From: a virus
Direction: 5' to 3' (one strand)
Virus genome (UHGV): UHGV-0126759
Length of the DNA: 16,087 nucleotides
The stretch's first letter is position 1, and each line of letters opens with the position of its first letter. Of this stretch, positions 1 through 10,847 are shown in pieces. The notes below the pieces were generated by a model. It was not told where the DNA came from. It did not search any database and saw only the letters and a program-made list of their open reading frames with translations. Both the position numbers and the translations under genes were made by a program.

Positions 1-11
1 ATCTGAAAGTT

Positions 12-446
12 TTGGATCGGTTTAAACTACGGGCATCCGAAGCGCTCGTAAACGGTTGGGTCGAGCGTGGGGTACGGGATGCGTGTGAAGTTATTTGCCG
101 TTACCCCGGCGCGACGACAATGTGGTCATGTCATGGACACGGACCATATTCTAAAAAGAACTCGCCAGGGGAGTTCCATGTGGTGTTTGTTCTTGGTGTT
201 GGCTTTGAGCACAAAGCGCATGAGCTAGTTGCTGAGTTAATGAAAGCGGATATTCCACCATTGTGGGATTTATCCATGGCGAGACTCATGTACCCTGATG
301 ATGATTTCGTTTATGACCTCAGCGAAATCACCCTGAAAAACACGTATAACGCGTGGAAGATAACGTATCGTTATCTGCACACCGAACAATCCCTTCGTGA
401 AATTCGTAAAGTATTCCACACAGTTTGCAAAAAGGTTTTTAACTAA
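12..446 (+). CDS. Hypothetical protein (144 aa as given in the ORF track); may be 5'-truncated by the window edge
   Basis: Open frame runs from position 3 with no upstream stop in the window; the first in-frame start is TTG at 12 and the first ATG at 120 has no Shine-Dalgarno. Its stop (TAA 444-446) overlaps the next ATG (TAATG), indicating translational coupling. Contains a CHGHG motif; no family recognised. Confidence 0.5.
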   Translation: MDRFKLRASEALVNGWVERGVRDACEVICRYPGATTMWSCHGHGPYSKKNSPGEFHVVFVLGVGFEHKAHELVAELMKADIPPLWDLSMARLMYPDDDFVYDLSEITLKNTYNAWKITYRYLHTEQSLREIRKVFHTVCKKVFN

Positions 447-1144
447 TGGCTAAGCAAAAGAAACCCCGTAACAAAAAGTATAACCCGAAAGTTGCCACAG
501 AACGTACGGCACACACCGTCGCTGAAAACGCTCTGAATCGTATCACGTTTATCGGCAGTTCGATTCGTCGCCTCGGGCCGTACGCGGGCCGTGGTTTTCA
601 CTTTACGGCAAGTCCTCGTATTCGTGCTATCGCCACAGATATGTTAGTCGGTGGGCTGTTCGACCAACCGCGACCATGGCATCTTTGGGTGATGCACCTC
701 ACTGAACTCGACACCGGTGAAATTGTAACAGAAACCGCAGTTGCCACACTCGACGATTATACTTTGGCGGACTTCTGTGAACACGCTGAGGAGTTAGTTA
801 AATCGTTACGTCCTGAACAGGAAGAGGGGAAGTATTTCGGTTATGCATTTGTGGCTGCACCGAACGAGCGGTACGACTTCAAAGCGGAAGAAGACCAGCT
901 CATTGAAAACTTCATGCATTCTGGACTACTTGATACGTCGTTACATCTGTCGGAAGAACAACAGTTCGTTAGTCGTGCAGATATGGCAAAGTTACTTGTT
1001 GGTTATACTCGGAAGTTTGACGTGACCGTTGAACATGTCAAAGAAGTACCAGAGATTGTGAGCAAGAAAGACGAGGTGGTGCTTCCGGTTGACGAGGTTG
1101 TCAGTAAAGTAGCGACTGCAATAGGGGCAACGGGGGATTACTGA
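446..1144 (+). CDS. Hypothetical protein, 232 aa, Lys-rich N-terminus (MAKQKKPRNKK)
   Basis: Long ORF on the coding strand; ATG overlaps the upstream stop (TAATG) and its TGA overlaps the next ATG (ATGA at 1142-1146). No recognisable motif. Confidence 0.6.
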   Translation: MAKQKKPRNKKYNPKVATERTAHTVAENALNRITFIGSSIRRLGPYAGRGFHFTASPRIRAIATDMLVGGLFDQPRPWHLWVMHLTELDTGEIVTETAVATLDDYTLADFCEHAEELVKSLRPEQEEGKYFGYAFVAAPNERYDFKAEEDQLIENFMHSGLLDTSLHLSEEQQFVSRADMAKLLVGYTRKFDVTVEHVKEVPEIVSKKDEVVLPVDEVVSKVATAIGATGDY

Positions 1145-1353
1145 TGAACTTACGTTGGCCGATCGCAGCTGCTGTGTTGTTCTGTATTTATATCGCCGTC
1201 AGTACCAGTACCCGCACTGCAGAACGTCGCGAGACCGCAACCAGTACGTTCAGAATGTGTATTGATCGAGTAGACCCGAACAATAGCACTTATCCCGACG
1301 CGGTGAACGCGTGTCGCAAAGCGGTTGCTGAGATATTGAAAGAGGAAAAATAA
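1144..1353 (+). CDS. Small protein (69 aa) with N-terminal hydrophobic segment, probable membrane anchor or signal peptide
   Basis: N-terminal stretch WPIAAAVLFCIYIAVSTS is hydrophobic. GGGGGA Shine-Dalgarno-like sequence upstream; start overlaps the upstream stop and its TAA overlaps the next ATG (TAATG at 1351-1355). Confidence 0.5.
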   Translation: MNLRWPIAAAVLFCIYIAVSTSTRTAERRETATSTFRMCIDRVDPNNSTYPDAVNACRKAVAEILKEEK

Positions 1354-3113
1354 TGGAAAACCTTACGCCGATTGAGATAGTGGCGCTATTCGACCGTTAC
1401 GTATATGGACAAACGCAGGCAAAGAAAATGCTGGCGATTGCGCTACGTAATCGATATCGTGCCAACAAACTCAACGTTGTGGACCGTATGTCGGTCCACA
1501 AACAGAACCTTTTAATAGAAGGTCCAACAGGCACGGGTAAAACGGCGTTGATGCGGGTACTGAAAACTAAATTCGGTTTACCTGTGCTGGAACTCGACAT
1601 GACCGCGTTTACAGAATCGGGCTACGTAGGCCGGGAAGTTACATCAATCGGCAAAGACTTAGCCGACTTAGCGCGTTCTGTCGAATTGCCCGACTGGTAT
1701 ATCGAACTGCGTACCAAACGTCGTGTCGAGACGGAAGTAGACGGTAATCGTCTTACTCGTGAAGAGTGGGAGCGTGAATCCCGTAAGGAAGTTGAACGCG
1801 AACTAGACGAGCGCGCAGCTGAGCGCCAGCTGCGGTATCAAGCTAAACGTGATCACACCGAACTATTACGGCGTCAGGGTATACTCGATCCGAAGGAGTT
1901 GTACGAAGAATACCAAGACATCTATTGTCTTCGCGCGTTTATGGTTGGCTATTGCCGTCAACACAATTTAACCTACGAAGACTTCGATATCTATTCCGTT
2001 ACACTCGGTGGTCGTACTGTGCAAGAATGGATAGATAAGATGTCGGAAATCGCAAGGGGTCTGTTCGGTGTCTCGTCAATTTCTGAACTGTTAAATAGTG
2101 AAGAATTTGAAAGCCAGATTGATAAGCTAATGTGCGGAGAAATACCGGACACGATTGGGTATATGGGTGAGATTATGTCGCTGATGGCTTTAGGCGAACA
2201 GATTGACTTATACGTTGATGCTGGTCAAAAGTTGATGTCGAATAACCTTCCGCTCTCATGTGCCGATGGCTCAGACTTCTACGATTTGTTCGACACGTTT
2301 AACGGCGACGACGAGGACGTCGAGCCGGCGGGCATCAATTGGTTCCCGATCGACGGTGCAGCGTTTACTATTCGCATGTTGTCTCGTTTGGAAGATCCTG
2401 AGAAGTGGTGTCGTTGGTGGGATGACGTGTTCGAAGGTTCTCCAGAATTCACCAAATACGCCGATGAACGGCTCTGGCATTACGAGATACCTGAAACAGT
2501 TGCACCAGAAAAAGAAACAGTCAGTCGCAAAGACCTCAAGAAACTACCCAACTGTAATGGACATGATTTCGTTGAGAACTTTGCGGTAGTGTTCCTGGAT
2601 GAGTTTGACAAACTTATCGAGGTTGATACACAACACTCTGCACGTGTATCCCGTAGTGGTGTGCAGCGCAGCTTGTTGAAAATGGTTGAAGGGGGTATTT
2701 ATCATGGCGTTGACACAACCAATGTGCTTTTTGTCGCTGCTGGGTCGTTTGCTCAAGCGCCTGTTTCTAAACTCATGGCAGAACTCCAGGGACGTTTTCC
2801 GTTAAGAGCGAAAATGTCTTCGCTGGACACCGAGGCACTGATTGCTATCTGTAAGTTGGATAACAGTGAGTTCCACGGCATGATTAAGTTGTTGAAAACC
2901 GAAGGGGTGGAAACGCAGTACGACATGGACACTTACACGTTCATCGCTGAGAAAACAATGGAAGCCAATGCTGTAGAGAACCTTGGTGCTCGTCGATTGG
3001 CGGATATTGTTCATCAGATCTTCTTACCTGCGTCTTACGACTCTTCGAAATATAAGCAATACGACATACGTGGTGAAACACTGCGTGGTCACGCTTGGTC
3101 AGAGAACGCGTAA
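1353..3113 (+). CDS. HslU/ClpX-family AAA+ unfoldase-like ATPase (586 aa) with an expanded insertion (I) domain
   Basis: Seen in sequence: Walker A GPTGTGKT (aa 57-64, nt 1521-1544), pore-loop GYVG (aa 90-93), Walker B VVFLDEFDK (aa 412-420, nt 2586-2612), SRSGVQRSLLKMVEGG box, LQGRFPLRA (Arg-finger region) and sensor-2 ENLGARRL. The N-terminus LTPIEIVALFDRYVYGQTQAKKMLAIALRNRYR is collinear with HslU as I recall it (MTPREIV...[21 protein letters not shown]). AGAGGA Shine-Dalgarno 8 nt upstream. Confidence 0.8.
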   Translation: MENLTPIEIVALFDRYVYGQTQAKKMLAIALRNRYRANKLNVVDRMSVHKQNLLIEGPTGTGKTALMRVLKTKFGLPVLELDMTAFTESGYVGREVTSIGKDLADLARSVELPDWYIELRTKRRVETEVDGNRLTREEWERESRKEVERELDERAAERQLRYQAKRDHTELLRRQGILDPKELYEEYQDIYCLRAFMVGYCRQHNLTYEDFDIYSVTLGGRTVQEWIDKMSEIARGLFGVSSISELLNSEEFESQIDKLMCGEIPDTIGYMGEIMSLMALGEQIDLYVDAGQKLMSNNLPLSCADGSDFYDLFDTFNGDDEDVEPAGINWFPIDGAAFTIRMLSRLEDPEKWCRWWDDVFEGSPEFTKYADERLWHYEIPETVAPEKETVSRKDLKKLPNCNGHDFVENFAVVFLDEFDKLIEVDTQHSARVSRSGVQRSLLKMVEGGIYHGVDTTNVLFVAAGSFAQAPVSKLMAELQGRFPLRAKMSSLDTEALIAICKLDNSEFHGMIKLLKTEGVETQYDMDTYTFIAEKTMEANAVENLGARRLADIVHQIFLPASYDSSKYKQYDIRGETLRGHAWSENA

Positions 3114-3117
3114 TGCT

Positions 3118-3140
3118 AATAGCGCCGCATGTGCGCTATT
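3118..3140 (+). other. Perfect 8-bp inverted repeat (AATAGCGC, 7-nt loop, GCGCTATT) just after the AAA+ gene stop, with no following T-tract
   Basis: Read directly: aatagcgc cgcatgt gcgctatt at 3118-3140. The lack of a U-tract argues against a canonical intrinsic terminator; it could be an RNA processing or stability element, or a protein-binding site. Confidence 0.3.
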
Positions 3141-3254
3141 GACCCTAGGTTACATGGATTCGATTTTAACCCCATGAAAGATACCATGTATTCCATCCTT
3201 TGATGTTGTGGCAGAAGAAACCCCACGTTATCAACTTATACGCACGGTGAAACA

Positions 3255-3587
3255 ATGAAGAAAGTTTTAGTTCTGTTAGGCGCACTCGTTACGCCTATGG
3301 TTGTCCACGCTGCGGACAAACCACTCTTACTCGACCAGGATGTTTACGAACGTGTATTCCTGGAATGCGCTAAAACGTTTAACGGACCACAGAAGACAAC
3401 CTTTAACGATTTGGACGAAGCGTTAGAGGTCTGCCGTGACACTGCAAAAGAAATCGCGGTACGTCAAGGAACCCTCAAAATGGCGGTGGGAAGCAACTGG
3501 GAAGAAGTGCAGGTGATGGAAAAACCGGGTTACATGGTCGACCTGAACGCTAAGTTGATGCGTGAAGAAAAACAGAAACAAAAGTGA
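3255..3587 (+). CDS. Small secreted or periplasmic protein (110 aa) with Sec-type signal peptide
   Basis: N-terminus MKKVLVLLGALVTPMVVHA followed by ADK has the classic n-h-c signal-peptide layout with an AXA-like cleavage site (VHA/AD). The mature part is charged and ends in a Lys-rich tail (EEKQKQK). Confidence 0.6.
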   Translation: MKKVLVLLGALVTPMVVHAADKPLLLDQDVYERVFLECAKTFNGPQKTTFNDLDEALEVCRDTAKEIAVRQGTLKMAVGSNWEEVQVMEKPGYMVDLNAKLMREEKQKQK

Positions 3588-3595
3588 GGTAAAGG

Positions 3596-4597
3596 ATGAC
3601 GAAGCTCGTTTCGTTTTCAGCAGGGTTGGATTCCACCTGGATAATGTATCAACTGTTGTGCAAAGCACCGGCCAATGAAGCGCGACATGTCCGTCCTGCA
3701 TATTTCTCCATGTGGAATGGAGGTAACGCGAACTTCATGGAAATTCTTTGTAGTGTGGCCATTGTTGAACGGCTAATGGACAGATACCACGCACAAACCG
3801 ATCGCGTTACATGGGCGGTGCTCGGGGAAGAGAACTTTCCGCCTGTCGTTAGCGCCGGATACGCTAACGGCTGGTCGCCTCTGGTTCAGCAAGGCAATGT
3901 TGTTAACGGCCTCGCTAAACTGATGTGCGACATTACACGCAAACAGCACCACGCCTATGCAGTTGTTGGCTGGAATAAGCTAGATGCGTTGGAGAATAGT
4001 CTAGAGCTGGGAGATTGGACATTAGACGAGTACGCACGCTTAAAGAACCTTTATAGCGAACTGATGTATTTCCAAGATCATGCCGGTCGCGTTCCGCCGC
4101 TTCTAACACCTGCGTGGGATAAAGAGAAACTGGAAATGTGGCAGGAGTTGCCGGAAGACATTCGTAGATTGGTGCAGGTCAGTAACTACAACAACTACGA
4201 ATTCGCGATAGACCGTGAGAATAACGTGCTCATCGTGTATGCCCATCCGTCGGCAAAGTCGCAGAATTATCGTAGTCTTGGTATTACACCGTCTGTGGGA
4301 TGGGAGATTAAAATCAACGATGCTTACAGACGGGTATGGTGTTCTGCTCTCGGTAGTGCTATTTCTGCTATGGGTTTGGACGTACCGACTTTTGCTAACT
4401 TTAAGGACCCGAAAAGAAATCACACAACCTTTACGGTAACTGAAGATACTGAAAGACTATTTATCACGTCATTTACAGCAGAAGAGTGGTGCGAATATGC
4501 ACCGCATTTTAAAGCGCTTCAGGAGAAAGAAAAAGAGAGAGCGAAAAATGCCAAAGCAAGTAAAGCTGGACGCTCCAACTGGCGAAGTGGCGGATAG
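3596..4597 (+). CDS. Divergent PP-loop (ATP pyrophosphatase)-like protein, 333 aa
   Basis: N-terminal strand-loop-helix KLVSFSAGLDSTWIMYQLL resembles the SGGxDS PP-loop signature of QueC, TilS and NadE-type enzymes, but with Ala replacing the second Gly. No C-terminal Cys cluster as in QueC. GAGGT Shine-Dalgarno upstream. The family call is motif-based only. Confidence 0.55.
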   Translation: MTKLVSFSAGLDSTWIMYQLLCKAPANEARHVRPAYFSMWNGGNANFMEILCSVAIVERLMDRYHAQTDRVTWAVLGEENFPPVVSAGYANGWSPLVQQGNVVNGLAKLMCDITRKQHHAYAVVGWNKLDALENSLELGDWTLDEYARLKNLYSELMYFQDHAGRVPPLLTPAWDKEKLEMWQELPEDIRRLVQVSNYNNYEFAIDRENNVLIVYAHPSAKSQNYRSLGITPSVGWEIKINDAYRRVWCSALGSAISAMGLDVPTFANFKDPKRNHTTFTVTEDTERLFITSFTAEEWCEYAPHFKALQEKEKERAKNAKASKAGRSNWRSGG

Positions 4598-4611
4598 CTG
4601 AAAAACGGAAT

Positions 4612-4929
4612 TTGCCAAAGCTGGATATAACAGTTAAGTCGGGGCTGAAATATTTGGCACCCGACTGGGACTTTCTGATGGACTACAAGAAGTCTGACAA
4701 AGGCCCCGACGCAGAAGCTGCGTATACCAAACGCTACCTGCAGAAACTTAGTCGGTTGTTTGATGAAGACACTGATAAGTTGATAGAGATTCTCCGCCAG
4801 GGCGAGGTCGTACTAATGTGCTATTGCCCACCGGGGAAATTCTGTCATCGCCACTTGCTAGTTTCTTACCTTATTGAAATCGGTGAGTGGTTCGGTTATG
4901 AAGTAATTTACATGGGCGAGTTATCGTAA
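4612..4929 (+). CDS. Small Cys/His-motif protein (105 aa), possibly DUF4326-like
   Basis: C-terminal motif LMCYCPPGKFCHRHLL (C-x-C-x5-C-H-x-H) resembles, from memory, the CWCxPxxCHxDVL signature of DUF4326 proteins. The start is TTG at 4612 with a weak Shine-Dalgarno; an alternative ATG lies at 4678. Confidence 0.45.
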   Translation: MPKLDITVKSGLKYLAPDWDFLMDYKKSDKGPDAEAAYTKRYLQKLSRLFDEDTDKLIEILRQGEVVLMCYCPPGKFCHRHLLVSYLIEIGEWFGYEVIYMGELS

Positions 4930-5406: not shown

Positions 5407-7356
5407 GTGACGACGAAACCTATAATCCGCAACTTTGCCGAGTTGGTCGAATATACTACAGAGACAATGCTAACCTTGGATCTTCCTGAGGTCTACGACC
5501 CGAGTGTAAGTCTGTCCGTAGATCAGAATGTAGACTACGATTATATCGGGGTCGTGACGGGAAAAAGCAACGTTACCAACCCCACAAACCACAAAGTGGT
5601 AATGTATGCTTACACCACCGGGGAGTATTTGCTAGGTGAAGCCCCTCTTGATGCCTCAGGGGCGTTTTCTTTTAAACGTACGTGGGCCGGTGCTAAACAG
5701 TTTAGACTAATCAATATATCAACTGGAGAGTGGATTACAACCCTGGAATTTCCTCTATGTATACGCAGTTACTTAATGCCCAGCGACGCCGAACCTGATG
5801 TTATCAAGGTAATGAAAGATCGATGTTACACGTACGATCAGGCGGTGGCAGCTTTAGCACTAATGGCTATAGATCACGGAGCCGTTGAGAAATATGTTAA
5901 AGGGCTTTGTGCTTTAGTGGACACAGACGGTGGTATTAAGTTTTATGTAAATCGTTTGTCTGCCAAGTCTCCACGTAACTATTATCGGATGGGCAATGTG
6001 GCATGGGTATTATACGCCCTTGCTTTTTACCTAGAGAAATATCCAAACGGCACCTTAGTTGGTCAAGTTAGGAGTAAGCTCACTCTTTCGCTCAGTTGGG
6101 TTGAAGGATTCCGTGTTAGCGATGTAAACGATAGGAGATACGGCTTATATCTCGGGGGTAAAGGCCGCTTTATTACAAACCCTGATGGTACGCAAACGTT
6201 CGATGAAAATTATGTAGCACCGTTCTCGGCCTTGGAACATTGTGTTGATTTGTGGTTTTTATTCGAGATATTGGGAAGGGTTGGATTTGATAGCTACGCC
6301 GCGAAGGCGATAGAGTTAGGCAATCTAATTTTAGACAAGTTTTGGATAGAAGAAGAGGGTCGATTGCGTCAAGGCGTTAGAGCCGATGTCGATGACGACG
6401 CTGCCGCTTTAGACCAGTCAAGCTGGGGTGGATTGTTTATCGCTAAGTTCAAACCGGAGCTGGCTTCGCAGTGTCACAGCTACATGGAAAAGTTTCGAGC
6501 AGTAACGTCCGAATGCAGCGGTTACACACCTTATAAGGTTGAATTGGGTTATCCGACTGCGGTCGACGGCGTTTGGGTTGAAGGAACTGCCGGTGTTGCC
6601 TTATTTGAAAGACAATTAGGGAACGATACTAGGGCAATTGAACTAATTAATAATATCGATGTTCTCCTGGGTGAACACGGTTATCGCGATTCGTGCGATG
6701 ACCCAACTTACGACACTTTACCTAATTGGCCGTCGACAACAAATACCGCCTGGGTGATTTTGGCCTGCGTACCAAGCGGCTTTTGGTTAGTTGATAAACC
6801 TGCACTGAATGCAAAATACAGCCCCCCTAATCGTTTTACACCTGACCTTAGATTAGACTCCAAGGGCCTCGTTGTGGCGTTAATTAATCACGATAACGGA
6901 TTGTCATTATCGCCTGACGAGATTGTAATAAGCGGAGTGGGGCCTATCGACTTAGGTGTTGAAAGTACCCGTACCGCACAAGCGTACATTGCAAAAGCAC
7001 GTAAACCTAACGGCAAGAAGGTTACCGTCTATTACGACCGTCTAGTTGCTAATAAGATTATCGACCCGCAAGGACCGATACTGGTTACTGTAGCTCCCGG
7101 CGACACCTATGCTGATTTAGCGACAGTTGTAAACCAGTTATGCGGTTTAAACTTGTCACGTGAAGACATCTCGACGGGGGTTATTACACCAACAAACGAG
7201 CCGTTGATTGCACCGATGAGTGACGATTCGCCGGCTTGGACGGCTACCTTTACATTCACGGCGTTTAATGAAAAAGAAGCTGTGGCAAGTCTGGATGAAG
7301 AAACTGTTTTATGCATCGGTGATGATGCAGTGTTAACCTACGGAGACGATGCATAA
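5407..7356 (+). CDS. Large hypothetical protein (about 649 aa from GTG 5407); aromatic-rich, possibly a helical-repeat carbohydrate-active enzyme with a C-terminal beta-rich domain
   Basis: The ORF track starts at 5371, but that would run through the terminator stem and T-tract; GTG at 5407 is in frame and lies 6 nt after a GGAGG Shine-Dalgarno (5396-5400). Helix-pair segments such as YDQAVAALALMAIDHG and NVAWVLYALAFYLEKYPNG resemble (alpha/alpha)-toroid glycosidase or lyase folds, which is an inference. Stop TAA overlaps the next ATG. Confidence 0.65.
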   Translation: MTTKPIIRNFAELVEYTTETMLTLDLPEVYDPSVSLSVDQNVDYDYIGVVTGKSNVTNPTNHKVVMYAYTTGEYLLGEAPLDASGAFSFKRTWAGAKQFRLINISTGEWITTLEFPLCIRSYLMPSDAEPDVIKVMKDRCYTYDQAVAALALMAIDHGAVEKYVKGLCALVDTDGGIKFYVNRLSAKSPRNYYRMGNVAWVLYALAFYLEKYPNGTLVGQVRSKLTLSLSWVEGFRVSDVNDRRYGLYLGGKGRFITNPDGTQTFDENYVAPFSALEHCVDLWFLFEILGRVGFDSYAAKAIELGNLILDKFWIEEEGRLRQGVRADVDDDAAALDQSSWGGLFIAKFKPELASQCHSYMEKFRAVTSECSGYTPYKVELGYPTAVDGVWVEGTAGVALFERQLGNDTRAIELINNIDVLLGEHGYRDSCDDPTYDTLPNWPSTTNTAWVILACVPSGFWLVDKPALNAKYSPPNRFTPDLRLDSKGLVVALINHDNGLSLSPDEIVISGVGPIDLGVESTRTAQAYIAKARKPNGKKVTVYYDRLVANKIIDPQGPILVTVAPGDTYADLATVVNQLCGLNLSREDISTGVITPTNEPLIAPMSDDSPAWTATFTFTAFNEKEAVASLDEETVLCIGDDAVLTYGDDA

Positions 7357-7826
7357 TGGCAACTGTAGTCAAAAAGAAACGTTTGCATGAACTCGATTCT
7401 TACGACGGTGATAAGTCGAGCGCAGTAGCGCTTATTAGCGTTGATGAAAAGGAGTACAAACTTCCTCTCAGTGAAATCGGCGGCGGGGCAGATGCAAACC
7501 CTATCCAAAACTTATCCGGTGCTGACGGTATCGTTGAAATAGATCCCAATATTGCGGACGACTTCATTATCCGTTTAGGTGACCCCACCACTGCGCTTTC
7601 TATCACACCTATTACCGACCCGGTTCCGGGTACGCGATATGAATTATTACTGACGCTACGTCAGGGTACCGGTGCAAACAAAATCACCTGGCCGGCTTCG
7701 GTTAAATGGCCTAACGGTGCAGAACCTCCGTTATCGTACACGCTAGACGCCGAGGATGTGTTGTCTTTGTCATCTACGGATGGCGGTACAACCTGGAAAG
7801 GGGCCATTTGCGGAACAGGATACTAA
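7356..7826 (+). CDS. Hypothetical Gly/Pro/Thr-rich protein, 156 aa
   Basis: ATG overlaps the upstream stop (TAATG at 7354-7358). Motifs such as ITWPASVKWPNGAEPPLSYTL and STDGGTTWKG suggest a beta-rich binding or fibre-like domain; no family assigned. Confidence 0.55.
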   Translation: MATVVKKKRLHELDSYDGDKSSAVALISVDEKEYKLPLSEIGGGADANPIQNLSGADGIVEIDPNIADDFIIRLGDPTTALSITPITDPVPGTRYELLLTLRQGTGANKITWPASVKWPNGAEPPLSYTLDAEDVLSLSSTDGGTTWKGAICGTGY

Positions 7827-7829
7827 GCC

Positions 7830-10800
7830 ATGCGCAAATTTAAAATCTCTGCTAAACGACATGCGTTGAACTATGCGATGTCGCTGGCTTACGGACATCA
7901 GGACTTTGTTCGCCGCAATACCGGTCTCACAAACGACGCCCACAATGACCATTATCTGATTAACCCAGAAGGGGTGCTATCTAATAACCGGCATTTCATT
8001 GCTGACTCCATGGCAGTGTATCAACCTAATGGTGACGCCACCACAGAAGGTCAATCGTTGCTGATTATTGGCTACTGTCACATGTACATTGCTACCAAAA
8101 ACCAGATGTGGTTAGATGCGGCGATTCGTGCATGGGAAGCGTACGCTACCTACTATTACGCAGGTCAGGCCATTCCTGAGTCACCGCAACGTTGGATTTG
8201 TAACTGGCTAGTTAACGGTAAAGAACCGGTGCTGTCAGACTATCCGGTGCATCCGACCGAGCCAACCCACGGTGGTTACAAGTGTGTACCGGTAACGTTT
8301 ACGAACGGGCGTTGTCAGATACCCCAAGGCGCACCGTTCTTTGGTGAATATCTGAACAATTTCTTTTCTGCGCATCGTGGCCATCCTACCTGGGGCGCGG
8401 TTAATGCTGACGTACAGAAAATTAAGGAATCGGAAGACGGGTTAATTGACTGGTCTAAAGTCCCTGATTACTTAATCACCAATCCAGAGAAACCTTACGA
8501 TGTAAAAGCGTGGGTAGACTGGAACAGGATGTTAAACGACCCAACCGGATATACCCCAATATGGGGTGGTTCTACCTCGAAAGGTCCGCGGTACGAACCT
8601 GACTGGTTTGTTGTGTGGACGGGTGAGAAGGTTCAAGACGGCGAAGTCATCGAATCCGGTTTACCTGATGCCCAGAAAGGAACCGTACAATTAAAGGACA
8701 CCAGTATTAACGGTGTATATTTGATTAACTACGCTTCCCAGGTACCTGTAGAGCACGGCGGATATTTGTTTGACCGCAATGAGCCGTGGCACAACCGTCC
8801 GGTTCATACCCCGTTAAAAGGGTCTGTTAACCAGATGGGTAACGCGGCAGATGCGGAAGTGTGGTTTATTGATGCCTGTTATCTCCTCTGGCGTATCACA
8901 GGTGAACCGCGCTATAAAGCCGCACTAGACTCGGTGTTCTATACAGCACACGAATACACGTATATCGATGCGAAGGACAAGTTTTTCCGTCGCTCTAAGT
9001 TAGCCGAAACACCATTTACAGATGGTATCTCGTACGACTATAAATACCCCAGCACCGTTGAGGTCGCTTACAGTCGTGATGAAAATGGTGACATTGTGCT
9101 CCGTTCTGAGGAAGCTGTGCAGAACTTTATGGAACAGCAAGCCGTGCGTTTCAGGATAAACAGTCAATCGAAGTTACGTGTGACGTATGGCGGTGTTTGC
9201 GACAACGGTGATGCGCTTGCGTGTAAAGTGATGGTGGATATCAACCCCGTTAAAGCGGATACTGAAGAAGTAAACTGGTACGGCTGTACGCTTCCAGGAT
9301 CAACATCGATGGAAGTAAAACAGCATGACATCGGTTTAGGGCATCTGGCCAGAATGACTAATCCGGCCAACGGCGAAGATTACATCATTGCCGATGCGCG
9401 AGCATGTTCAGATTACGGTGGGTGTACGTGGCAGGAGAAGTTTGAGAGCAACATCTACGATGGTCGTTCAGGCACAATCGTAGAAGCGTTATTCCCGAAC
9501 GACGATGCGGGCTTCATTATCGGTTTCTGGTTAACTGATGCTGGAGTTGCGCCCCCACAGTCAATTGTCTATCGTGCTGATGCCGATTTCAACTTCCGTT
9601 TCGAAGATACCAAGAAGTGGCGTTGGTGGTGGATGTTGCCCGCGACTAACGGGGAATGGAAACAGGTTATTATTCGCCCTGAAGACGCAACACTCTCGGG
9701 CTATCAACCTGACCACGATACTGATGTCGAAACAAAACCGTCTGCGCCAAACTACACAACTATCGATCAGGTAACCATACTGCCCGATTCGGCTGTGGAG
9801 AATGCGCACTTTAGCTGGTATTGCGTAAACGATGTTCCGCCACTGTTTAATGCAGATGATGGCTGGACATTAACGTTTCGCATCGCAATTCGGGGAGGTT
9901 CTGCATTTACGGGTAAAGTGGGCGATTGTACGATAAAAGATTACCGTCTTGACTCGCTCGCGTATTGTCCAGGAACGATACCGTTCTCGAACATTTATTC
10001 GGAAGGAACGTATCAGCTAGGTGCATGGCACGGGATGCCGTATCCTGGCTATCAGTATCCGTTTATGTACACCATACACACCGATGATCGCTACAAAGTC
10101 TGGCTCTTAAATCAGATTCGGTTTATGCACGATTCACAAACCAACTACCAGGCGCAGCTAGGTGAGTTAGGTCCAGGTTGTGCGGCGTATATTTGGAACC
10201 GTTGGGATAACTACACTTACGGACCGGCAGATACGTGGACAACGTTCCATTGGGGAGATGGACATCCGTGGGCAGGTTATCAGCCGCGCGCGTATAACGC
10301 CGCTGCGCGTTGTTGGTACGAATTAGCTGTGCGTGGTAAAGAGGTTCCACCAGAGCTAGTAGAGTACGTTGAAAATTGGGCTAAGTGGCTCGTAGGGTTC
10401 TTAGACCGCTTTGACAACCACACGCCGAATGAATTCCCTACGGCACCAAATAAACCGGTGTGGGTAGAGAATGATTTCACAGCACATATGTGTGCGCTCT
10501 GGATAGCAGGCAGCGCTTATGCGGCAATGGCTGGCTGTAAAGTGGAAGGGCTGAACCGGATTATGGATATGGGGATGAAAGAGATGGGTGACAACTTCAC
10601 CGTCACAGACATTCCAGGAAAAGCCATTAACGGTGCCTGGTCTCCGTGGGCAAACCCTACCACGGATAACGGTCAGGCTTTTGGGTTTTATACTGGAGAA
10701 GCGATGCGTGCAATCGGGTTGTATCTCCTCTATAAAGAACACGGCCCAGGACATGATATTTATCGTGACTTGGCAATACCCGACCACACAACAGCTTCAC

Positions 10801-10847
10801 TCGATATAACGTTTACTATCCCAGACGATCCGCTCGAAACTAATTAA
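7830..10847 (+). CDS. Large hypothetical protein, 1005 aa; Trp/Tyr-rich, possibly a polysaccharide-active enzyme or virion-associated depolymerase
   Basis: Uninterrupted 3-kb ORF starting 3 nt after the upstream stop. Very aromatic-rich, with helix-pair motifs (LLIIGYCHMYIATKNQMWLDAAIRAWEAYATYYY; VWFIDACYLLWRITGEPRYKAALDSVFYTAHEY; FGFYTGEAMRAIGLYLLYKEHG). The function is inferred only from composition and motif style. Confidence 0.7.
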   Translation: MRKFKISAKRHALNYAMSLAYGHQDFVRRNTGLTNDAHNDHYLINPEGVLSNNRHFIADSMAVYQPNGDATTEGQSLLIIGYCHMYIATKNQMWLDAAIRAWEAYATYYYAGQAIPESPQRWICNWLVNGKEPVLSDYPVHPTEPTHGGYKCVPVTFTNGRCQIPQGAPFFGEYLNNFFSAHRGHPTWGAVNADVQKIKESEDGLIDWSKVPDYLITNPEKPYDVKAWVDWNRMLNDPTGYTPIWGGSTSKGPRYEPDWFVVWTGEKVQDGEVIESGLPDAQKGTVQLKDTSINGVYLINYASQVPVEHGGYLFDRNEPWHNRPVHTPLKGSVNQMGNAADAEVWFIDACYLLWRITGEPRYKAALDSVFYTAHEYTYIDAKDKFFRRSKLAETPFTDGISYDYKYPSTVEVAYSRDENGDIVLRSEEAVQNFMEQQAVRFRINSQSKLRVTYGGVCDNGDALACKVMVDINPVKADTEEVNWYGCTLPGSTSMEVKQHDIGLGHLARMTNPANGEDYIIADARACSDYGGCTWQEKFESNIYDGRSGTIVEALFPNDDAGFIIGFWLTDAGVAPPQSIVYRADADFNFRFEDTKKWRWWWMLPATNGEWKQVIIRPEDATLSGYQPDHDTDVETKPSAPNYTTIDQVTILPDSAVENAHFSWYCVNDVPPLFNADDGWTLTFRIAIRGGSAFTGKVGDCTIKDYRLDSLAYCPGTIPFSNIYSEGTYQLGAWHGMPYPGYQYPFMYTIHTDDRYKVWLLNQIRFMHDSQTNYQAQLGELGPGCAAYIWNRWDNYTYGPADTWTTFHWGDGHPWAGYQPRAYNAAARCWYELAVRGKEVPPELVEYVENWAKWLVGFLDRFDNHTPNEFPTAPNKPVWVENDFTAHMCALWIAGSAYAAMAGCKVEGLNRIMDMGMKEMGDNFTVTDIPGKAINGAWSPWANPTTDNGQAFGFYTGEAMRAIGLYLLYKEHGPGHDIYRDLAIPDHTTASLDITFTIPDDPLETN

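Follow-up and report, generated by a model that had tools for sequence, protein, structure and literature searches.

What does a bacteriophage do with a protein that resembles the bacterial unfoldase HslU when no HslV peptidase is encoded beside it? The question is raised by a DNA stretch of 16,087 nucleotides from UHGV virus genome UHGV-0126759 (the whole of this stretch is called the window here), in which all long open reading frames (ORFs) lie on the + strand and the one at 1353-3113 encodes an HslU-like protein of 586 aa. The answer that we hold, on a modest balance of probability, is that this protein is an accessory unfoldase or remodeller of the HslU clade, specific to chimallin-encoding (phiKZ-like) jumbo phages, which would act independently of a peptidase on clients chosen by its insertion, in a conditional role and probably at or in the phage nucleus.

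The identity of the protein was addressed first by profile and structure. A phmmer search of the PDB matched HslU with E=9e-49 (170 bits) and ClpX with 96 bits, and the similarity to HslU was confined to two stretches, aa 1-109 and 402-568, on either side of an insertion. Over the aligned stretches the AAA+ modules were 35-45% identical to enterobacterial HslU. Among the NCBIfam models, hslU ranked first (E=2e-61; ClpX 4.5e-37), while the score of 208.2 bits did not reach the equivalog cut-off of TIGR00390 (hslU), 362.45 bits. The AlphaFold model of the 586-aa protein had a mean predicted local distance difference test score (pLDDT) of 86 with 72 homologues, and in a Foldseek comparison of the whole model with the PDB all 50 matches listed were HslU/ClpY chains, the best with E of about 1e-19. 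A sequence-only reading of this DNA had found all HslU motifs present and collinear, and had proposed that profile searches and structure prediction should settle the fold; each motif was recovered in its place, and the PDB, NCBIfam and AlphaFold/Foldseek results confirmed the HslU fold. Walker A and B, the GYVG pore-1 loop, the arginine-finger box and sensor-2 were invariant in the alignment of 25 family members. Judged by these matches, the window protein belongs to the HslU clade of AAA+ ATPases and its motor is intact. The parts are arranged as follows.

1353-3113, + strand: HslU-like AAA+ ATPase gene, family phrog_4339, 586 aa plus stop (PHROG, PDB, NCBIfam, AlphaFold/Foldseek, and the ratio of nonsynonymous to synonymous substitution rates, dN/dS)
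1353-1679, + strand: N-terminal part of the AAA+ large domain (aa 1-109), aligning with E. coli HslU residues 1-109; invariant family columns; dN/dS 0.00-0.04
1521-1544, + strand: Walker A, GPTGTGKT, aa 57-64
1620-1631, + strand: pore-1 loop, GYVG, aa 90-93
1680-2567, + strand: inserted domain, an all-alpha orphan module (aa 110-405)
2568-3110, + strand: rest of the AAA+ large domain and the small domain (aa 406-586), aligning with E. coli HslU residues 242-414
2586-2612, + strand: Walker B, VVFLDEFDK, aa 412-420
aa 433-442 of the protein: SRSGVQRSLL box
2784-2810, + strand: arginine-finger box, LQGRFPLRA, aa 478-486
2976-2999, + strand: sensor-2, ENLGARRL, aa 542-549
3060-3110, + strand: truncated non-canonical C-terminus

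The insertion occupies the I-domain position, which in HslU is the site of substrate recognition. The spacing between pore loop and Walker B was 322 aa here against 160-216 aa in 35 bacterial HslUs, these being the sequences in a set of 37 in which both motifs were found. The I-domain had been described as roughly doubled, and this holds for its length. It does not hold for a doubling of the I-domain itself, since hhalign detected no relation between the two halves of the insertion, nor between either half and the bacterial I-domain profile (probability 0.1-0.2%); internal duplication was in this way ruled out as the source of the long insertion (hhalign probability 0.1%). A domain-only AlphaFold model (aa 105-405) was all-helical, with a pLDDT of 82 and a predicted template modelling score of 0.71, and contained a charged helix of 39 residues at aa 136-174. 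Foldseek of the inserted domain against viral models gave no match beyond one member of the same family, and a phmmer search of 1.84 billion representative proteins likewise matched the same family alone. The proposal of a novel substrate-recognition insertion thereby gained ground, as no relative in sequence or structure was detectable outside the phage family. The domain evolves under constraint, with dN/dS of 0.13-0.17 compared with 0.03-0.06 in the AAA+ parts.

Across jumbo-phage genera, at least three mutually non-alignable insertions were found on the conserved motor.

I-domain type 1, Seoulvirus, Machinavirus and Wellingtonvirus: insertion of about 285-300 aa, pore loop GYVG
I-domain type 2, CR5 and Derbicusvirus: insertion of about 400 aa, pore loop GYHG
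I-domain type 3, RAY and Agricanvirus: insertion of about 227 aa, pore loop GYYG

Within type 1, the I-domain of the window protein could be aligned with those of Huxley (34% identity, E=9e-51) and Wellington (22%, E=9e-10). Non-alignable insertions on one conserved motor are the pattern expected of an exchangeable substrate-recognition module.

The second departure from HslU lies at the C-terminus. In HslU the C-terminal tail (...EDLSRFIL in E. coli) binds and activates HslV and is needed for both. All 37 bacterial HslUs ended in IL preceded by Y or F, and did so exactly 52 residues after the start of GARRL in 36 cases and 51 residues after it in one. The window protein ends ...GETLRGHAWSENA, 41 residues after the GARRL start. 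In the phage family as a whole 36-47 residues follow GARRL, the end being short and variable and never IL preceded by Y or F, and all 25 close family members end in ...G..LR followed by 1-12 variable residues. Compared with bacterial HslU, the C-terminus of the window protein is about 10-15 residues shorter and the conserved terminal segment is gone, so that the earlier description of a non-canonical end (...RGHAWSENA) was borne out against the 37 bacterial sequences. As read from its sequence, the protein has no canonical HslV-docking tail, and because of this it would not be part of an ordinary HslUV pair. Six features that define HslU were tested, and four of these the window protein does not have, namely the equivalog score, a canonical I-domain, the docking tail and an adjacent hslV, and the proper label is therefore 'HslU-like, member of phrog_4339'.

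In which phages does this protein occur? The first 5.4 kb of the window showed 98% nucleotide identity to Salmonella phage 1252, which is the nearest genome available in complete form, and 94-98% to other SPN3US-like Seoulvirus jumbo phages. By this identity the source of the window is a virulent phiKZ-related SPN3US-like jumbo phage (Seoulvirus), and not the generic mobile element to which the gene had been attributed. Phage 1252 encodes a phiKZ-type major capsid protein. A Pfam search of phage 1252 for chimallin matched no model, and a diverged chimallin homologue, gp244, has been reported in SPN3US (PMC9365700). The phage of the window is probably nucleus-forming, a status that is taken from the literature and not from the Pfam search.

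The profile of phrog_4339 matches the window protein in its full length (aa 1-580, E=2.9e-148), which makes it a member of this family. By tblastn, proteins with 96-97% identity were found in phages 1252, SPLA3 and MET_P1_082_240, where they are annotated hslU, with 72-73% identity in SPAsTU, STsAS and pEa_SNUABM_29, with 49-51% in Machinavirus and with 42-43% in Wellington and Kwan; CR5-like and RAY-like phages matched in the AAA+ parts only. In jumbo phages of Erwinia, Salmonella and Cronobacter, members of the family carry the annotation 'HslU', 'HslU domain-containing protein' or '(putative) heat shock protein'. One published statement holds that pSal-SNUABM-04 has HslV genes and that no HslU subunit was detected (PMC7823757). 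An HslU-like gene was found in this phage by tblastn (49% identity, MT710307.1 106144-107871), annotated as a 'putative DnaA protein', and on this match the statement appears incomplete and looks like an annotation gap.

The module had been thought undescribed, which did not survive the comparison, as the family is already phrog_4339 and carries hslU or heat shock protein annotations in many GenBank records. Already known are thus the annotated family and the localization of one distant member, in a single paper. New here are the consistent loss of the tail, the orphan insertion that is swapped between genera, the independence from the phage HslV-family peptidase and two deletion events.

The peptidase that would be expected to accompany an HslU was looked for in the same genomes. 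No HslV-like ORF was found in the window by a hidden Markov model (HMM) search, and seven loci had none either within 4-10 kb of their HslU-like gene. When E. coli HslV served as tblastn query against every phage record, nothing came up in Seoulvirus or in the Erwinia jumbo phages; this proved to be a false negative, because a divergent gene was later found in phage 1252 when all its six-frame ORFs were searched with an HMM made from seven HslV sequences. Exactly one ORF was hit (E=6.7e-6, PP695294.1 194552-195043, equal to 45553-46044 of locus L009). Its distance from hslU is 100 kb or more. The product, 163 aa beginning MTTIAFDGKVLAADGQ... (MTTIAFDG...), was assigned to phrog_1040, 'peptidase HslV family', with E=2e-37, while Pfam gave a sub-threshold Proteasome match alone (E=0.066). 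The catalytic Thr1, Asp (ADGQ), Lys and GSG of HslV align in it. The earlier remark that the ATPase has no HslV partner accordingly stands for the window, where the HMM search was negative, and falls for the rest of the genome as represented by phage 1252.

The peptidase and the HslU-like gene did not travel together. Seoulvirus phages without hslU, SPN3US included, carry the HslV-family peptidase in a form that is 97-100% identical. Phage records with the peptidase numbered 468, and those with any HslU-like match 166; for Salmonella phages the two counts were 278 and 14, and many of these 278 records are siphophages of 40-50 kb without an HslU-like gene. In the other direction, the whole genome of Erwinia phage Wellington, which has the same I-domain type, contained no HslV-like ORF by HMM or phmmer (best E 0.35), and no HslV-family peptidase was found by tblastn in the CR5 and RAY groups. 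The peptidase is retained where hslU has been deleted and Wellington has the HslU-like protein without HslV, and on these gene contents the distribution of the peptidase is independent of that of the HslU-like gene in both directions.

The HslU-like gene is itself an inconstant member of these genomes. Its dN/dS was 0.09-0.12 among three phages, which shows purifying selection, and most Seoulvirus genomes are without it. The sites involved in its loss, and in the loss of a neighbour, can be located in the window.

1383-1390, + strand: left copy of the 8-bp microhomology GCGCTATT (SPN3US-type 1750-bp deletion)
1547-1555, + strand: left copy of the 9-bp microhomology GTTGATGCG (vB_EcoM_EC001-type 2007-bp deletion)
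3133-3140, + strand: right copy of GCGCTATT, the 3' arm of a hairpin past the hslU stop
3176-3257, + strand: 3' remnant (82 nt) of a 161-aa gene, SPN3US gp149
3554-3562, + strand: right copy of GTTGATGCG, within the 110-aa ORF 3255-3587

In SPN3US the first ~38 nt of hslU remain and are fused to the downstream spacer at GCGCTATT, with 1750 bp gone. The same junction was found in at least 15 further records, including SaP7, ten SPFM phages, SEGD1, SPLA5c and Proteus phage 7. The 2007-bp deletion of vB_EcoM_EC001 has left as its scar a 75-aa fusion ORF, MENLT...GKTALMR-EEKQKQK (1551-1778 of locus L022), in which hslU codons 1-68, Walker A among them, run straight into the final 7 codons of the 110-aa gene downstream; this chimera is annotated as 'putative heat shock protein'. 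Since the two junctions differ, hslU must have been ancestral in Seoulvirus and lost at least twice independently, and since whole lineages that deleted it stay viable, SPN3US, a standard laboratory phage, among them, the gene is dispensable for propagation.

A 161-aa gene (gp149) follows hslU in MET_P1_082_240. About 421 bp of it, start included, are deleted in the window and in phage 1252, so that the window keeps hslU while gp149 is gone. Together with the two hslU deletions in sister phages, the gp149 deletion marks this spot as a deletion hot spot. The 161-aa gene, named 'head maturation protease' in RefSeq, was also considered as a candidate HslV and rejected, having no more than a Peptidase_S80 hint (E=0.07) and no HslV HMM signal, and being deleted here where hslU is kept.

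How might the protein work? An intact motor, a constrained insertion and the missing tail make a peptidase-independent unfoldase the most economical inference. The HslU-like protein would assemble as a hexameric ring, which would grip specific client proteins and unfold or remodel them. The lineage-specific inserted domain would select these clients, which would be released and not fed to an HslV-type peptidase. The action probably takes place inside or at the phage nucleus, by analogy with a distant homologue, gp116 of Erwinia phage RAY, a member of the 'HslUV protease family' that was reported to co-localize with the DNA of the phage inside the phage nucleus (Prichard et al. 2023, PMC10299810). 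For the window protein, nuclear action is likely on this analogy but unproven, because the homology to RAY gp116 is limited to the motor. The role is likely to be conditional, for instance dependent on host or stress, and not essential.

Several points weigh against the peptidase-independent unfoldase. The absence of the tail argues against canonical docking and not against every form of docking. Seoulvirus, Machinavirus and SPAsTU all carry the HslV-family peptidase with Thr1, Asp and Lys, and a non-canonical complex is conceivable. The localization of RAY gp116 may not transfer, given 31-34% identity in the AAA+ modules alone, another insertion and the pore loop GYYG. In the literature on characterized phage HslU-like and HslV-like proteins, the localization of this distant homologue was all that turned up; a further paper concerned only the transcription of host hslUV (PMC12345140).

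In the alternative that survives best, the protein would be the ATPase partner of the phage's own HslV-family peptidase (phrog_1040), the two forming a viral HslUV-like protease through a tail-independent interface. Phage 1252 encodes such a peptidase with Thr1, Asp, Lys and GSG aligned, and every genome with the closest HslU-like type (Seoulvirus, Machinavirus, SPAsTU and pEa_SNUABM_29) has one. We regard this pairing as possible and still unlikely, as the peptidase is kept both in the hslU-deleted Seoulvirus phages and in hundreds of phages of 40-50 kb, Wellington has the same I-domain type with no HslV-like ORF in its genome and the CR5 and RAY groups none by tblastn, the two genes are never adjacent, and the docking and activating tail is absent.

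More speculative than this pairing are two further ideas: a nucleus-specific unfoldase and the phage's own HslV-family peptidase would meet at a new, tail-independent interface and form a virus-encoded protease of proteasome-like kind, or the ring would extract or thread specific proteins at the chimallin shell by means of its orphan helical domain. In either case the repeated loss of the gene would reflect a conditional role that depends on host or defence systems.

Hijacking of the host's HslV, which would be retargeted to substrates of the phage's choice, is improbable. The Salmonella host does encode HslV and the AAA+ ring is HslU-like, but the tail is missing in every family member, and a nuclear location like that of RAY gp116, should it apply, would probably put the protein in a compartment closed to host HslV. 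Lower still in probability is an interference with host proteostasis, either by co-assembly or competition with host HslU, so that HslUV is poisoned, or as a decoy. The 35-45% identity of the AAA+ modules to enterobacterial HslU speaks for it, and a tail-less subunit in a mixed ring might be expected to weaken the activation of HslV; the conserved pore loop, Walker B and arginine finger and the constrained insertion nevertheless fit better an active enzyme that has substrates of its own. A candidate host-takeover or anti-defence module, as the sequence-only reading had suggested, found no supporting evidence, and the gene is accessory and was lost at least twice. Hardly credible, finally, is a relic in decay that has no current function and is heading for loss: the repeated deletion in sister lineages and the deleted neighbouring gene in the window would fit, but the frame of 586 codons is intact with all catalytic motifs, the dN/dS among the three phages is low (0.09-0.12), and 42-73% identity is conserved across several phage genera.

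AAA+ unfoldases are usually read as protease halves; here a viral clade keeps the motor, sheds the coupling tail and swaps the recognition domain between genera. Should the nuclear localization of RAY gp116 be general, there would be remodelling machines inside the phage nucleus, a compartment in which the turnover of proteins and the control of their quality are unexplored. Deletions that arose in nature (SPN3US and EC001 versus 1252 and MET_P1_082_240) offer a ready genetic comparison for finding the condition in which the gene pays, and the orphan domain of 295 aa is a defined handle for substrate trapping.

The surroundings of the gene were also inspected. A strong Shine-Dalgarno sequence (AGAGGA) precedes the ORF at 1353-3113, whose start overlaps the stop of a 69-aa ORF as TAATG at 1353, in agreement with the translational coupling noted earlier. 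In a scan of 1-3700 for promoters and terminators, sites were no commoner than in shuffled sequences, and the hairpin just 3' of the hslU stop codon was not statistically significant (z=-1.4). The genomic context upstream consists of two genes.

446-1353, + strand: 232-aa (phrog_6965) and 69-aa (phrog_28359) genes, translationally coupled, upstream of hslU

Both are kept in the same coupled string in the hslU-deleted SPN3US and vB_EcoM_EC001. The idea that their products are adaptors or substrates of the HslU-like protein is for this reason unlikely, and as dedicated adaptors they were rejected. Homologues of the 232-aa protein lie upstream of hslU in Huxley (45% identity) and CR5 (29%), and not in RAY.

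We noticed that the small proteins flanking hslU, encoded at 3255-3587 and 1144-1353, have hydrophobic N-termini resembling signal peptides or anchors (MKKVLVLLGALVTPMVVHA... and MNLRWPIAAAVLFCIYIAVS..., respectively), which suggests that both products are envelope-targeted within an otherwise cytoplasmic or nuclear gene block. A protein of ~315-346 aa followed by a DUF488-N3a protein was found near the HslU-like gene at 3596-4929 of the window and in three other loci (L005 6049-7441, L024 12176-13512 and L019 13260-14682). The pair occurs in Seoulvirus, CR5 and a metagenomic contig, and in Wellington in rearranged order; it may represent plain chimallivirus synteny or a functional block. Further downstream, the 661-aa ORF at 5371-7356 matches SPN3US gp144, a 'virion structural protein', in its last 175 aa alone (94% identity; Pfam DUF7941). 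The N-terminal part of 486 aa has no counterpart in SPN3US or phage 1252; in MET_P1_082_240 its place is taken by three small ORFs. This ORF may be a variable tail or host-range cassette beside the tail-fibre genes at 7356-10847.

Among the systems already described, bacterial HslU (ClpY), known from the E. coli and H. influenzae structures 1G4A, 1E94, 1G3I, 5JI3 and 6PXK, is the best match in both sequence and structure. Common to both are a split AAA+ architecture, in which an insertion separates pore-1 loop and Walker B, as well as Walker A and B, GYVG, SR.GVQR..L, the arginine-finger box ELQGR.P.R and the GARRL of sensor-2. Unlike bacterial HslU, the window protein scores below the equivalog cut-off and has no adjacent hslV, and in place of the canonical I-domain of 130-190 aa it has an unrelated, all-helical insertion of about 295 aa. 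ClpX comes second among the AAA+ matches, by virtue of the N-terminal AAA+ half, and scores far below HslU. In contrast to ClpX, the window protein is without the zinc-binding N-domain, beginning at the position of ClpX residue ~60-68, and on inspection of the family alignment no conserved IGF-type ([ILV]G[FL]) ClpP-docking loop was seen.

On the phage side, close relatives encode no HslV-like protein other than the phrog_1040 peptidase, whose gene lies outside the window and never next to that of the HslU-like protein. RAY gp116, an HslU-like ATPase of a jumbo phage, resembles the window protein in size (569 aa), in its enlarged insertion and in lacking a canonical tail, and both are accessory, gp116 lying outside the core genome. 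Identity between the two is restricted to the AAA+ modules (31-34%), and gp116 differs in its shorter, non-alignable insertion (about 227 aa), the pore loop GYYG, the 76 residues that follow GARRL and its gene neighbours, which are not homologous to those in the window. Closest by far are the other members of phrog_4339, from Seoulvirus, Machinavirus, Wellingtonvirus, SPAsTU and relatives, which have the same I-domain type and the same ...YDI(T/R)G..LR ending; nothing substantive separates the window protein from them, and variation is found in the last 8-9 residues.

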